Below the pieces are notes generated by a model. That model worked only from the letters and a program-made list of their open reading frames with translations. It was not told where the DNA came from and searched no databases. This document shows, one piece after another, positions 26,017 through 30,202 of a DNA stretch of 64,000 nt. Origin of the DNA: an uncultured bacterium (lineage in GTDB: Bacteria; Bacillota_I; Bacilli_A; RFN20; CAG-826); the NCBI GenBank assembly GCA_949291375.1, contig CASEVI010000002.1, positions 40,069 through 104,068 on the forward strand, written 5' to 3'. Position 1 is the first letter of the stretch. Each line of letters begins with the position of its first letter. The position numbers and the translations under genes are program-made.

Positions 26017-27393
26017 TTAAAATTGAACAAATTTCTTTAAATATTCTCTAGATAAAGGCATTGAATCTTTACCATAATATTCATCTAATTCACTTAAAAA
26101 TTTATTAATTGTTGGTCCAAGTCTTAAAAAATCTTTTGTTTCTAATTTTCTTAAAATTTTTTTTGAAATAAAATCATCAAAAGCTTCTTCTTTACTTCCG
26201 CCACATTCGACATAAAGTGGAACATATTTTAAAATTTGATTAAGCATACGATTACCAAAATTAATTGAGAAATCTTGATTTAATAATTCATCAATAATAT
26301 TTATCCATTTCATAACAACTTTATAATCTTCACTTAAAGTGAATTGTTTTATTTTTTCTTCACAAATATTTTTAAAATCTGTATTAGAAATTTTTCTTTC
26401 TTTTACTTTTTCGCCCTTAAAAGGTGTAGCTTTTTTATTTAAATTTAAAACCATTGAACGGTCATAAACTTTATCTGAGATAGCAAATGTAGATTCATCG
26501 TTATTAGCAGTTCCTAAAAAATAAACATTATCTTTAATTAATAATTTGCCTTCTTTTAACATTCGTGGATCATTAACCCAAACGTCATTAGTAATTTCAA
26601 GTTTTCTTCTATCTTCATCTGGATATTCTAAAAGAGAAAGAAATTCAGCAAAATAATATTCAATTCTAGCAATATTAACTTCATCTAAAATAATTATATA
26701 AATCTTATCATCAAAATTAGATTTATATAATTCTTCTAAAAGTAAAGTTTCGTTAAATTTCTTCGTAAATTCATTAAAATACCCGACTAAATCACTTCTT
26801 TCTTTCCACATTGGTTGAATAGCTATTGGCTCCAAGACATTGCCAATAAACTTTTCAAAAGCTAAAGCAATTGAAGTTTTACCAGTTCCACTCATACCTT
26901 GAAGAATCATAAGTTTAGAAACTCCTAAATTAGCAACAAAAGCTCTAATATCTTCAATATCGTAATATAAATTTAACTTTTCAGCGCAATAATATCTAAA
27001 TTCATTACAAAAAGTACTTAAAGAAGTGAAATTATCAAAAACAATTTCTTCTCTTTTTTCATTATCTATGTCGTAAAGTTTTGAAAAACGATAAGCATTT
27101 TTATCTTCACTATTTTTATGAGCTAAATTTTTAACCTTTAAATAAGATTCTCTATTGAATATAAACTCTTCTTCAGCATCACTTTTTAATGTAAAAAAAT
27201 AATAAACCACATAACAAGAAGGAATGATAAAAAGCAGAACAATTACTACATAAACTAAAGGGTTGGTTAAAATAAATCCACCTCCATCACTTAAAGTAAA
27301 GGCTAAAAGGAATGATAAAAAGAATAGCCCAAGAATTAAATCAACGACTATTAATATAGCGCAAATTTGATCGATTAATTTTCTATTAACCAT
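26017..27393 (-). CDS. McrB-family (AAA_5) GTPase/ATPase with two N-terminal TM helices (paralog 2)
   Basis: ILQGMSGTGKTS (Walker A), IYIIILDEVNIARIEYYFAEFLSLLE (McrB IIDEINRAN-like Walker B block), and NVYFLGTANNDESTFAISDKVYDRSMV (McrB IIGTMNTADRS...RRF-like block). Two hydrophobic helices in the first 70 aa. Confidence 0.72.
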   Translation of the reverse strand: MVNRKLIDQICAILIVVDLILGLFFLSFLLAFTLSDGGGFILTNPLVYVVIVLLFIIPSCYVVYYFFTLKSDAEEEFIFNRESYLKVKNLAHKNSEDKNAYRFSKLYDIDNEKREEIVFDNFTSLSTFCNEFRYYCAEKLNLYYDIEDIRAFVANLGVSKLMILQGMSGTGKTSIALAFEKFIGNVLEPIAIQPMWKERSDLVGYFNEFTKKFNETLLLEELYKSNFDDKIYIIILDEVNIARIEYYFAEFLSLLEYPDEDRRKLEITNDVWVNDPRMLKEGKLLIKDNVYFLGTANNDESTFAISDKVYDRSMVLNLNKKATPFKGEKVKERKISNTDFKNICEEKIKQFTLSEDYKVVMKWINIIDELLNQDFSINFGNRMLNQILKYVPLYVECGGSKEEAFDDFISKKILRKLETKDFLRLGPTINKFLSELDEYYGKDSMPLSREYLKKFVQF

Positions 27394-28906
27394 TTATCTT
27401 CTCCTTCTTTTTTAATAATTCACGAATTTCCTTTTTCTTTTCTTTTTTAATAGTTTTTTTAACTTCTTTCCATTTATCTTTAAAATAAGCAGTAAAAATA
27501 TCAAAGTCTTTTTCTAATTCATTAAAATAAAGTTCATCATTCTTTTCTTTTTCAAATTCAGGATTAATACGAATGTTAAGAGCTCTATTTATTGCTTTAA
27601 GTTTATTTATTTCTTCTTCATATTCTTTCTTTAAAGCTTCTTTTTCATTTTTAAGCTTAATAACTTCATTATTTAACCTTTTTGTATCTTCTTCATAACG
27701 ATTATTTAAGTCTTCATAGTTATAAGTTAAAGTTTCAATTTTTCGATTTAAATCTTTTTTAACTTCATTAAGATTATTTAAATCTTCTTCTTTAGTTTTA
27801 TGTAATAATTCATCTTTATTTTTCAATTCATCTTCAAGTTTAAGAATAATATTTGTTATTTCTTCTTTGTTTAAAGAATCATTAGCGAAAATTTCAGAGA
27901 TCTTATTAACTAATATTTCATGATTTAATCTTCTAATATCTTCTTGCTCATTAAGATATTCTTCTTCTAAAAGCGGGAATAAATCCTTTGATTCTGAATA
28001 AGAAAGAAAGGTTAAAATCGTTGGAATAAATTTGAAAAAATTTATATAAGCATCGCTTAAGTTATTTAATTTAATTTCTCTTTTTTCGATTTCAAAACCA
28101 TCTTTGCTATAGTTCTTTAAGTATTCATAAAGTTCATAACATTTAACAAAGTTAGGATCATTTTTTAAGACATTATTTTTTTGAATAGGTTCACTAATTA
28201 AAGGAAGTTTTGAAACAATTGAAATTAAATCGCTTTTAAAAAATTGTTCAATTGTTGAAGTAATTGCATTAAGTCTATTAATTAAATCTTTATTAACATC
28301 ATTTTCTTCAACCTTTAAATCTGTATGTCTAATATCATCTACTGAAATATCATAACTAATTGAATCTTTGAAAATAGTAACATTATTTTTTAAAGTGGTT
28401 TTAATTTCTAATACAGATTGAGCTTCTTTTATCTTATCAAAACGCATTGAAACAAATGATTTTAAAAGTAAAAGTAAATAAACTAAAAATTTATTTTCGT
28501 ATAATCCAAAATCATCATTTTTTTCTACAATTAATAATTTCCTTGGTTCAACATCTTGATTAACTTCATTAAATTTTCTTATGTTATTTGAATGTTTAGC
28601 TAAATCGACAATTGAATCCTTAGAGACTCTTTTAATCTTTTCTATATCTACTGTTTCACCAGTATTTAAAATAAATCTTCTACCTTCTAAAATAGCACTT
28701 GAAATAAAAGGAAGATAAAATTCAATTTTTTCGATCCAATCAGATTCAATTTTAATAGAATTTTCAAAAGTATTAATCTCATTAAAAAGAGATGGGGAAT
28801 TTTTAACTAAATCTCCAAGTTGTTCTAATTTTGGATTTTTTATAACAACACTTAAATATTGTTTTAATCCTTTATATTGATTATACTTTATTCCACTTCT
28901 ATTCAT
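27386..28906 (-). CDS. Coiled-coil protein (506 aa) between the two McrB-like genes; a possible McrC-like partner
   Basis: Translationally coupled to both neighbours by ATGnTAA-type overlaps. The C-terminal 180 aa are K/E-rich heptad coiled coil. The N-terminal region has a D...ENK stretch (KNDDFGLYENKFLVY) that could be a degenerate PD-(D/E)xK, but this is unproven. Confidence 0.55.
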   Translation of the reverse strand: MNRSGIKYNQYKGLKQYLSVVIKNPKLEQLGDLVKNSPSLFNEINTFENSIKIESDWIEKIEFYLPFISSAILEGRRFILNTGETVDIEKIKRVSKDSIVDLAKHSNNIRKFNEVNQDVEPRKLLIVEKNDDFGLYENKFLVYLLLLLKSFVSMRFDKIKEAQSVLEIKTTLKNNVTIFKDSISYDISVDDIRHTDLKVEENDVNKDLINRLNAITSTIEQFFKSDLISIVSKLPLISEPIQKNNVLKNDPNFVKCYELYEYLKNYSKDGFEIEKREIKLNNLSDAYINFFKFIPTILTFLSYSESKDLFPLLEEEYLNEQEDIRRLNHEILVNKISEIFANDSLNKEEITNIILKLEDELKNKDELLHKTKEEDLNNLNEVKKDLNRKIETLTYNYEDLNNRYEEDTKRLNNEVIKLKNEKEALKKEYEEEINKLKAINRALNIRINPEFEKEKNDELYFNELEKDFDIFTAYFKDKWKEVKKTIKKEKKKEIRELLKKKEKING

Positions 28907-28909
28907 ATA

Positions 28910-30202
28910 CTAACCAATAATATTATATTTAGATACGTATTCTTTACATTTTTTCATTGAATCGACACCGAAAACCAAATTAAGTTTATCAATGAATGGT
29001 TTAACAGCAGTTGATAGTTTTAAAAAATCTTTTCCTTCAAGTTTTCTTAAAATCTTTTTAGCAACAAAATCATCAAAAGCTTCTTCTTTACTCCCACCAC
29101 AAGCAACATAAACTGGAACATATCTTAAAATTTGTCCACTCATACGATTGCCAAAACTTATACCGAATGATTCGACAATAAGTTCATTTATTTTATTAAT
29201 CCAATTTTGAAGTTCATCATAATCGCTTGATTTTTTGAAAGATTCTTCAGCATCATTAGCAAGTTTTATGAATTGAGTATTAGAAATTTGACATTGATTT
29301 ACTTTATTTCCTTCAAAACCTTCTGCTTTTTTCTCTAAATTTAGAACCATTGCTCTATCATAAACTTTATCTGAAATAGCAAATGTAGATTCATCGTTAT
29401 TTGCAGTTCCTAAAAAATAAACATTTTCACCAATTTGAAGCCTTCCTTTTTTTAATTTTTTAGGGTCTCTATCCCAAACATCATTTGTAATTTCTAAAGT
29501 TCTTTGTTCGATATTTGGATACTCTAAAAGAGAAAGGAATTCAGCAAAATAATATTCAACACGCGCAATATTAACTTCATCTAAAACGATAATATAGATT
29601 TTGTCGCTAAAAGTTGCATCATATAATTCTTCTAATAATGGGGTTTCATTAAACTTTTTAGTAAATTCATTAAAATAACCAATTAAATCGCTTCTTTCTT
29701 TCCACATTGGTTGAATTGCTATTGGATCAAGAACATTGTTAATATATTTCTCAAAAGCTAAAGCAATTGAAGTTTTACCAGTACCGCTCATACCTTGAAG
29801 AATCATAATTTTTGAAGTAGCTAAATTAGCGATAAAAGAACGAATATCTTCAATGGTATAATAAAGTTTTAAATTTGATGCACAGAAATTTCTAAAATCT
29901 TCAGAGAAAGTTTTTAAAGAAATTACATTATCATATTCAATAGTAGGTCTTTTTTTACTATCTAAAATTAAAAGTTTAGAAAATCTTTCACTATCATTAT
30001 TAGCTGCTTCTTCTCCACTTCCAATTTCTTCACTTAAATCTATAATTTCTTTATTCTTTTTACTCGATCCTTTAATAATAAAAGTATTGTTTTCTTTTAA
30101 ATATTTATAAAGGATAAGACATGAAATTACTGCTAATATCAAAAAGACGATAGTAGCAACAACTAATAGAACAATTTGAGAAACTGTGCTAGTTAAAACC
30201 AT
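28910..30202 (-). CDS. McrB-family (AAA_5) GTPase/ATPase with an N-terminal TM helix (paralog 1)
   Basis: About 75% identical to the 26017-27393 product across the GTPase and C-terminal domains (ILQGMSGTGKTSIALAFEK, ILDEVNIARVEYYFAEFLSLLEYP, YFLGTANNDESTFAISDKVYDRAMVLNL). Start set at MVLTSTVSQIV (30202), which has an AAAGGAG SD; the longer ORF to 30265 overlaps the LRR gene. Confidence 0.72.
   Translation of the reverse strand: MVLTSTVSQIVLLVVATIVFLILAVISCLILYKYLKENNTFIIKGSSKKNKEIIDLSEEIGSGEEAANNDSERFSKLLILDSKKRPTIEYDNVISLKTFSEDFRNFCASNLKLYYTIEDIRSFIANLATSKIMILQGMSGTGKTSIALAFEKYINNVLDPIAIQPMWKERSDLIGYFNEFTKKFNETPLLEELYDATFSDKIYIIVLDEVNIARVEYYFAEFLSLLEYPNIEQRTLEITNDVWDRDPKKLKKGRLQIGENVYFLGTANNDESTFAISDKVYDRAMVLNLEKKAEGFEGNKVNQCQISNTQFIKLANDAEESFKKSSDYDELQNWINKINELIVESFGISFGNRMSGQILRYVPVYVACGGSKEEAFDDFVAKKILRKLEGKDFLKLSTAVKPFIDKLNLVFGVDSMKKCKEYVSKYNIIG

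Follow-up and report, generated by a model that had tools for sequence, protein, structure and literature searches.

We analyzed a 64,000-nucleotide (nt) window of contig CASEVI010000002.1 (GenBank assembly GCA_949291375.1), from an uncultured bacterium of the CAG-826 lineage of the Bacillota, in which two McrB-like GTPase genes bracket a third gene. We consider it probable that these represent an ancient, position-specific pair of membrane-tethered GTPases of the McrB/CnuB type with an NxD signature, set around a nuclease-less, coiled-coil DUF2357 partner, and that the three form the cytoplasmic core of a conserved and chromosomally stable six-gene envelope operon and not a DNA restriction enzyme. 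As part of the same probable reading, the likeness of the two GTPase cores would be kept by purifying selection in the window genome and by recurrent, core-bounded gene conversion in many other lineages. All coordinates are positions within the window, and the features are collected in Table 1.

The two GTPases are true paralogues. Their similarity spans the whole cytoplasmic part (BLASTP E value 2e-175, 60% identity over 418 columns), and 236 of the 357 residues between the RFSKL motif and the C-terminus match (66%, less than the about 75% given by a first-pass annotation of the sequence). Identity runs across all 357 core residues and is not confined to the P-loop, and generic AAA similarity is ruled out by a core that aligns throughout. 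At the nucleotide level, the cores are 73% identical, with a longest exact match of 32 nt, while Nei-Gojobori estimates of nonsynonymous (dN) and synonymous (dS) divergence are 0.27 and 0.71 between the two genes (dN/dS 0.38) and 0.125 and 0.80 for the AAA core alone (dN/dS 0.16). The four conserved blocks and the GSGEEAANNDSE linker quoted in the annotation are present in the sequences, and its claim of unrelated N-termini was borne out by a hydropathy scan, which found one transmembrane (TM) helix in the upstream GTPase, two in the downstream GTPase, and none in the middle protein. The upstream architecture comprises a short outside N-terminus, one TM helix, an acidic and lysine-rich linker, and an AAA+ core of the NxD type, and the downstream one a cytoplasmic N-terminus, a two-TM hairpin, a K/E-rich linker, and an NxD GTPase core. 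Linkers of 30-40 residues separate the TM helices from the cores, and the upstream core is predicted to be cytoplasmic because lysines come after its helix (positive-inside rule).

Judging from motifs and profiles, both GTPases belong to the McrB family and to its NxD, CoCoNuT-related branch. The label "McrB-like" was apt, as a profile of the GTPase family aligned with Escherichia coli McrB at a probability of 96.7% (hhalign, E 3.8e-10) and had McrB as its sole match in the PDB (E 9e-5), and Pfam AAA_5 matched both proteins against a cutoff of 22 bits (30.7 bits and E 3.5e-7 downstream, 34.8 bits and E 2e-8 upstream). The 16 upstream and downstream homologues compared share Walker A (GMSGTGKT), Walker B (LDEVN), and several arginines without variation. 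The stretch GTANNDES aligns with GLMNTADRS of E. coli McrB with a one-residue deletion, which turns NTAD into NND followed by E; "NxD, usually followed by E or D" is the hallmark of the CoCoNuT-related branch, and none of the NxD GTPases had been characterized at the time of that census (PMC11090510). For the window GTPases, we infer GTP-specific hydrolysis and hexamer formation by analogy. The nearest annotated relatives are 34-37% identical, have no TM segments, and lie on Rhodoferax and Deinococcus plasmids, in operons that open with a UPF1-like helicase gene and go on to encode a hypothetical, an AAA, and a DUF2357 protein, a layout that fits the type II/III CoCoNuTs of PMC11090510.

The middle gene had been described as a non-duplicated coiled-coil gene; it is indeed single-copy with a long coiled coil, while the description missed that its product is, by sequence comparison, a DUF2357/CnuC-type partner without a nuclease and not a canonical McrC. 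DUF2357 (PF09823) is the Pfam family of the McrC N-terminal domain (PMC11090510), and its model scored 22.7 bits over residues 81-164, slightly below its cutoff of 23.3 (E 6.6e-5). It matched four of 29 members of the middle-protein family, and a homologue in locus L067 scored 30.0 bits, above the cutoff. A profile of the N-terminal domain aligned with a RefSeq DUF2357 protein over 200 columns (hhalign probability 97.5%, E 7e-12) and with a second one at 94.1% (E 1e-7), both being the downstream partners of the nearest annotated GTPase relatives, and the invariant motifs YEN and NVLKNDPNF align with the motifs DY.(I/V)YEN and TN(I/V)L..DP of the DUF2357 proteins. In the AlphaFold2 model (predicted local distance difference test score 84), a mixed alpha/beta N-terminal domain (residues 1-306) is followed by helices only, at residues 310-341, 347-447 (~100 residues), and 458-505. 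No nuclease was found in the protein by Pfam, NCBIfam, or PADLOC, and CnuC homologues without a nuclease are documented (PMC11090510). A PDB profile search with the middle protein returned only coiled-coil proteins, which we take as noise. Homologues range from 350 to 1333 aa in total length, and the N-domain profile matched 2144 cluster representatives at 50% identity among 1.84 billion representatives searched, the best 150 of the 2144 all being close family members.

The three genes exactly fill positions 26017-30202, and the trio that the annotation had treated as a unit, though a real set of adjacent genes, is incomplete, being the cytoplasmic core of a six-gene envelope operon. Open reading frame (ORF) analysis of the window shows six consecutive minus-strand ORFs with junctions of -8 to +19 nt, and on these junctions we consider the six genes an operon. 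The first gene, which encodes a leucine-rich repeat (LRR) protein, stops 14 nt ahead of the upstream GTPase, whose ATG lies 8 nt past an AAAGGAG ribosome-binding site; a TTG start at 30265 given by the ORF lister was rejected, as it would overlap the preceding gene. The end of the middle gene and the beginning of the downstream GTPase gene overlap by 8 nt, and the ATG of the first transglutaminase gene lies 19 nt past the downstream GTPase stop and is preceded by a GAGGAG ribosome-binding site. Scans for promoters and terminators were uninformative in DNA of 25% GC, with 82 promoter-like sites against 96 expected.

The remaining operon products are membrane or surface proteins. The LRR_5 protein has four predicted TM helices, two K-rich, predicted-cytoplasmic domains of ~120 aa, a Cys-rich tail, and an extracellular BspA-type LRR_5 domain (Pfam E 8.5e-17), and its orthologues are equally placed in loci L001, L002, L007, L009-L011, and L013. 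Both transglutaminase proteins begin with a signal-anchor TM helix and contain repeated beta-domain modules and a transglutaminase core, which in protein 1 is of the Cys-His-Glu type; homologues have kept the catalytic Cys and His, the third residue being Glu or Asp. The two are themselves paralogues (31% identity over 695 aa, E 6e-77), and the pair (20589-25997, minus strand) represents a second, older duplication in the operon that is kept in most related loci.

To place the locus among its relatives, one genome per GTDB species was scanned, giving 593 confirmed matching stretches, from which 78 loci were kept; 84 loci were annotated with phmmer, and the trio was compared across 31 loci in which it is complete. 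All 78 kept loci are from gut, rumen, or fecal Bacillota metagenome-assembled genomes (MAGs), with labels that include Bacilli, Ca. Onthovivens, Anaeroplasmataceae, Acholeplasmatales, Haloplasmataceae, Christensenellaceae, Oscillospiraceae, and Lachnospiraceae. Both GTPase types and the middle protein are encoded together on the same contigs. In 46 of the 84 loci the genes follow the order GTPase, middle protein, GTPase, transglutaminase protein, and transglutaminase protein 2 is conserved past the second GTPase in 46 loci. Five homologous contexts share the sequence of a variable first gene, GTPase, middle gene, GTPase, transglutaminase protein, and giant protein. The neighborhoods are of housekeeping type and vary with the lineage (e.g., ATP synthase in L002 and NusG/SecE in L006); in the window the operon is preceded by MatE and an M24 peptidase and followed by QueT, Tgt, QueA, and QueH, and L001 has the same Tgt/QueA synteny. 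The GC content of the module is 0.257, and that of its flanks 0.243 and 0.258. No viral relatives were found in 2.9 million viral contigs, and these null matches, the flank-equal GC, and the housekeeping synteny rule out a mobile or phage-borne element.

The first gene encodes an LRR_5 protein in 14 loci and, in 12 loci, a protein of ~1100 aa that combines a GH3-like domain and two TM helices with an apparently degenerate McrB-like domain. In these Clostridia-type loci, such as L004 (2975-6631), a GH3_C/Fn3-like N-terminal part and two TM segments precede a C-terminal domain with a weak match to the McrB-like core (E 1e-6 to 1e-9), and the gene is also found in L025, L030, L039, L050, L059, L060, L064, L065, L068, L079, and L081. 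From its sequence, the product may be a third, inactive GTPase paralogue in the LRR_5 position. Locus L067 (8912-13926) is built differently, with a single 720-aa GTPase consisting of a signal/TM helix, ~300 extracellular residues, a PT-repeat linker, a second TM segment, and the core, followed by a middle-protein homologue and a YkuD (L,D-transpeptidase)/Big_2 protein, and without a second GTPase or transglutaminase genes.

Across the 31 complete loci, the proposal of a common motor with two hard-wired N-termini is strongly reinforced, as the upstream copy has one TM helix and the downstream copy two in 29 of them (a two-TM downstream copy occurs in 30). The identity between the two cores is bimodal, with 16 loci at 0.56-0.79 and 15 at 0.97-1.00, of which 14 reach exactly 1.00, and in these 14 loci an exact shared DNA tract of 1,019-1,165 nt covers the GTPase core. 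These tracts begin within ~30-80 nt of the first residue of the core and stop close to the stop codon, in most loci no more than a few nt from it, and the N-terminal parts outside them are unrelated. Mosaics occur too, with a 903-nt tract in L073 and a 544-nt tract within the 79%-identical pair of L045. Exact direct repeats of this kind would be expected to favor loss of the middle gene by deletion; that they persist implies that the complete trio is under selection, and they may also be the reason why many MAG contigs break inside GTPase genes.

In a neighbor-joining tree of the GTPases (200 bootstrap replicates), the downstream copies of the window, L001, L007, and L013 cluster together (88%), while their upstream copies form two supported pairs (96% and 100%) and no single supported group; the copies of L062 and L084 cluster by position in the same way. 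Elsewhere, the two copies of one genome cluster with each other (100% in L004, L006, L019, and L045; 93% in L058; 85% in L052). Positional clustering in the window subclade places the GTPase split before the divergence of the window species and three related species, and because the tree mixes positional orthology with within-genome clustering, it indicates a single old duplication, after which gene conversion acted in episodes and only within the shared core. The window lineage falls among the diverged cases, and both of its copies are under purifying selection. The tandem duplication that the first-pass annotation had proposed is hence real as a paralogous pair, but its recency is ruled out by dS of ~0.7 and the shared positional orthologue groups, and the arrangement is common to Bacilli-like and Clostridia-like MAGs.

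Table 1. Features of the six-gene operon in the window and core repeats in related loci
Feature	Position	Strand	Basis
LRR_5 membrane protein, 660 aa (operon gene 1)	30216..32198	minus	Pfam, hydropathy scan
Upstream McrB-like GTPase, 430 aa	28910..30202	minus	Pfam AAA_5, PADLOC, hhalign
Single TM helix, upstream GTPase, residues ~6-31	30110..30187	minus	Kyte-Doolittle 19-residue mean 3.24
Conserved core, upstream GTPase, residues 73-430	28913..29986	minus	motif coordinates, alignment
Walker A GMSGTGKT, upstream core	29771..29794	minus	
Walker B LDEVN, upstream core	29570..29584	minus	
NND(E) signature, upstream core	29393..29401	minus	
Middle gene, 506 aa, no TM; DUF2357 domain and coiled coil	27386..28906	minus	Pfam, hhalign, AlphaFold2
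Globular N-domain, middle protein, residues 1-306	27989..28906	minus	invariant columns, AlphaFold2
Invariant motif YEN, middle N-domain	28493..28501	minus	
Invariant motif NVLKNDPNF, middle N-domain	28148..28174	minus	
Coiled-coil C-terminal half, middle protein, residues 310-505	27392..27979	minus	AlphaFold2 secondary structure
Downstream McrB-like GTPase, 458 aa	26017..27393	minus	Pfam AAA_5, PADLOC
TM hairpin, downstream GTPase, TM1 residues ~9-33, TM2 ~46-68	27190..27369	minus	hydropathy scan
Conserved core, downstream GTPase, residues 102-458	26020..27090	minus	motif coordinates
Walker A, downstream core	26875..26898	minus	
Walker B, downstream core	26674..26688	minus	
ANNDE, downstream core	26494..26508	minus	
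Transglutaminase-core surface protein 1, 715 aa	23850..25997	minus	Pfam Transglut_core E 4.5e-14
Transglutaminase-core surface protein 2, 1085 aa	20589..23846	minus	Pfam Transglut_core E 4.6e-10
Exact direct repeats ~3 kb apart in L004, L005, L019, L026, L027, L030, L034, L035, L050, L059, L060, L065, L068, L079			

Outside the operon, a complete queuosine salvage/synthesis cluster lies directly downstream (15593-20368, minus strand) and comprises the QueT transporter, Tgt, QueA, and a fusion of QueH with a glycosyltransferase-2 domain (544 aa), the fusion being unusual. On the opposite strand, ~4 kb from the operon (36097-39419, plus strand, GC 0.16-0.21), genes for an AAA_21 ATPase (425 aa), an RloB-like protein (254 aa), and a Fic/DOC protein (398 aa) resemble a small defense or toxin islet of the OLD/AbiL type. 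In a protein collection clustered at 90% identity, the cluster of the 430-aa GTPase lists 660-aa LRR_5 members, apparently an artefact of database clustering.

How such an operon might work can be drawn by analogy with E. coli McrBC, in which McrB forms hexamers and McrC stimulates GTP hydrolysis (Nirwan 2019 and Niu 2020, as summarized in PMC11090510), and it is on this basis that we infer ring formation, GTPase stimulation, and surface coupling. Held by their anchors at the cytoplasmic side of the membrane, the GTPase cores would assemble as hexameric rings. The middle protein would engage the ring with its DUF2357 domain and stimulate GTP hydrolysis, and its coiled coil would dimerize or act as a scaffold. 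By way of the TM segments, the resulting nucleotide-driven switch would be linked to the LRR and transglutaminase-like proteins outside the cell, which may serve as cysteine protease, cross-linker, or adhesin, with the coupling running either inside-out (surface control) or outside-in (sensing). We propose this coupling because the other operon products are all membrane or surface proteins and nucleic-acid domains are all missing, and the L067 GTPase, which joins its own extracellular domain to the core through a TM segment, supports the theme of trans-membrane coupling.

As to ring composition, mixed (hetero-oligomeric) rings would be plausible. Where the two cores are identical, a mixed ring would be the default expectation because the ring-forming domain cannot distinguish the subunits, unless the anchors sort them, and in the window lineage a core divergence of 34% would allow a fixed subunit arrangement. 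A tentative alternative, which fits the data equally well, is that the GTPases do not mix and that two homo-hexamers, one of each type, are bridged by a coiled-coil dimer of the middle protein. The gene order GTPase-middle-GTPase with its tight translational coupling agrees with this, as do the single DUF2357 domain and the long, dimerization-prone helix predicted for the middle protein, and the differences between the window cores would be enough for self-sorting. The arrangement would also mirror the tetradecamer that McrBC forms in E. coli from two McrB hexamers and two McrC (drawn in part from structures cited in PMC11090510). Yet the cores are identical in 14 of the 31 lineages, and there sorting could come only from anchors and linkers or from co-translational assembly. 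Taking the proposals for the operon to their full extent, one may envision an undescribed trans-envelope machine of gut Bacillota, in which a McrBC-derived ring of two differently anchored subunits, with motors kept identical by conversion and clamped by a nuclease-less, McrC-like coiled-coil protein, would power or gate, through GTP hydrolysis, extracellular transglutaminase-fold enzymes and LRR adhesins; in this complete form the proposal is somewhat unlikely.

We acknowledge that several observations weigh against our reading of the pair as the old, conserved core of an envelope operon. First, Foldseek searches with the full-length middle protein and with its N-domain alone returned no McrC or other structure at E < 0.1, and hhalign gave no signal between the middle-protein family and E. 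coli McrC, so the link to McrC rests on the Pfam DUF2357 model and the CoCoNuT-type DUF2357 proteins. Second, in L022, L075, and L081 a GTPase gene is followed by transglutaminase genes without a middle gene or a second small GTPase, though upstream sequence is present, and hence the middle gene is not strictly obligatory. Third, the transglutaminase proteins have only tiny cytoplasmic tails within reach of a cytoplasmic ring. Fourth, the cases of 100% core identity all come from SPAdes-type assemblies, in which near-identical repeats may collapse and inflate identity, and "100%" is therefore safest read as at least ~98%; many contigs, however, have one of their ends within the GTPase core, as expected of an assembler that breaks off at a true repeat, which gives independent support for the repeats. 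Finally, the PADLOC model PDC-M26A (724 positions) strongly matched both GTPases over its AAA core (model positions ~312-433; E 3e-43 upstream and 5e-37 downstream), the A component being the one part of PDC-M26 that matched, and their nearest relatives sit in the plasmid operons resembling type II/III CoCoNuTs.

The last of these points would suit an anti-phage or anti-plasmid system, that is, a membrane-associated CoCoNuT/McrBC derivative of PDC-M26-like type, in which the LRR and transglutaminase proteins sense or attack the invader and the GTPase/DUF2357 pair is the switch or effector (e.g., abortive infection by membrane or envelope damage). That CoCoNuTs include nuclease-less CnuC homologues (PMC11090510) and that the AAA_21/RloB/Fic islet lies 4 kb away also favor defense. 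We nevertheless consider it unlikely. Neither the middle protein, the other four proteins, nor any further window protein matches any PADLOC model. No nuclease, HEPN, helicase, or nucleic-acid-binding domain was found in the six genes by Pfam, NCBIfam, or PADLOC. The neighborhoods are lineage-variable and housekeeping (ATP synthase, NusG/SecE, queuosine genes), not defense islands, the operon equals its flanks in GC, and the gene order is stable over deep Bacillota lineages, with the confirmed stretches in GTDB species genomes and none among the viral contigs. Least credible of all, and in our view very improbable, is that the pairs arose as independent, lineage-specific recent duplications, as the clustering of paralogues within genomes and the 'young' look of the 1.0-1.17 kb exact tracts might suggest, because each duplication would have to re-create the one-TM upstream and two-TM downstream forms around the same middle gene, the downstream N-termini can be aligned between the window, L001, and L002 even though the two L002 cores group with each other, the identity tracts stop at the core boundary and the stop codon, mosaics such as that of L045 occur, and the copies are positional orthologues in the window clade.

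With a probable envelope operon as the preferred reading, the locus can be set beside known systems. With E. coli McrBC, it shares the homologous AAA+ GTPase core, an adjacent and translationally coupled partner gene with a DUF2357 domain, and two N-terminal forms on one motor; this last analogy, drawn by the first-pass annotation, holds, with McrB-L and McrB-S made from one gene in E. coli (mcrB and mcrB-S are both annotated in NC_000913) and two separate GTPase genes here. Unlike in McrBC, the window GTPases have TM anchors in place of the DNA-binding N-domain and an NxD signature instead of NxxD, the partner has a coiled coil where McrC has a PD-(D/E)xK nuclease, and surface transglutaminase and LRR proteins are linked. 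The locus falls outside type IV restriction in the strict sense, as no DNA-modification-reading domain was found on the GTPases and no endonuclease in the operon. Likenesses to CoCoNuTs (CnuB/CnuC; Bell et al. 2024, PMC11090510) include the NxD motif followed by E, coiled coils joined to an McrC-like protein, nuclease-less forms of which exist, and the hhalign match of the middle protein to the DUF2357 proteins of type II/III-like relatives. In contrast to CoCoNuTs, the window operon lacks the CnuH helicase, CnuE HEPN, cold-shock and YTH domains, and a nuclease (it falls outside types I-III, with no helicase, HEPN, or nuclease found in the operon or its flanks), and its GTPases are membrane-anchored and duplicated, in a chromosomal housekeeping setting and in association with extracytoplasmic enzymes.

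The closest named group is the CoCoPALM clade. CoCoPALMs are covered in one paragraph of PMC11090510, as an NxD GTPase fused to an FtsB-like TM segment and coiled coil with associated signal-peptidase genes, and details are deferred to a "forthcoming publication"; the supplements of that paper mention neither transglutaminase nor CoCoPALM, and our literature search found no follow-up paper. Compared by description only, the two have in common an NxD GTPase with a TM N-terminus, a coiled-coil McrC homologue, and partners that are envelope- or secretion-related instead of nucleic-acid enzymes, while the window differs in its two GTPase genes and its transglutaminase and LRR partners, and we detected no coiled coil in the window GTPases and no signal peptidase in the six genes or their flanks. 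Two further systems offer a functional analogy only (drawn in part from PMC3507681, PMC8430577, and PMC3032545). MoxR-DUF58-transglutaminase operons, such as those of P. aeruginosa TgpA and the bifidobacterial PFNA cluster, encode an AAA+ ATPase with extracytoplasmic transglutaminase-like membrane proteins, and in LapD/LapG a cytoplasmic nucleotide signal passes via a membrane protein to an adhesin-processing protease of transglutaminase fold. We claim no homology with either, as MoxR is of the AAA_3 and the window GTPases of the McrB/AAA_5 type, and the window has no DUF58/VWA partner or cyclic di-GMP receptor domain. The searched literature holds no description of this architecture, with its twin anchors and its transglutaminase and LRR partners.

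McrBC is the textbook GTP-driven restriction enzyme. A 2024 census showed the NxD branch to have moved into RNA-targeting defense (PMC11090510), and the present locus suggests a further departure, in which a GTPase/DUF2357 pair without nucleic-acid domains is membrane-bound and shares an operon with surface proteins. The arrangement is common, as seen in 593 stretches in GTDB species genomes and ~2100 clusters of the middle protein at 50% identity, and its carriers are abundant, mostly uncultured gut and rumen Bacillota, wall-less lineages included. It also provides an unusually clean natural case of domain-bounded concerted evolution, with the motor DNA-identical in about half of the lineages and the anchors distinct, which bears on the evolution of mixed AAA+ rings. 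If the trans-envelope machine were real, a restriction-enzyme motor would have been recruited for adhesion, for surface-protein processing or cross-linking, or for envelope sensing, and a coupling to surface enzymes, if true, would represent a new way to power or control extracellular protein chemistry from the cytoplasm.

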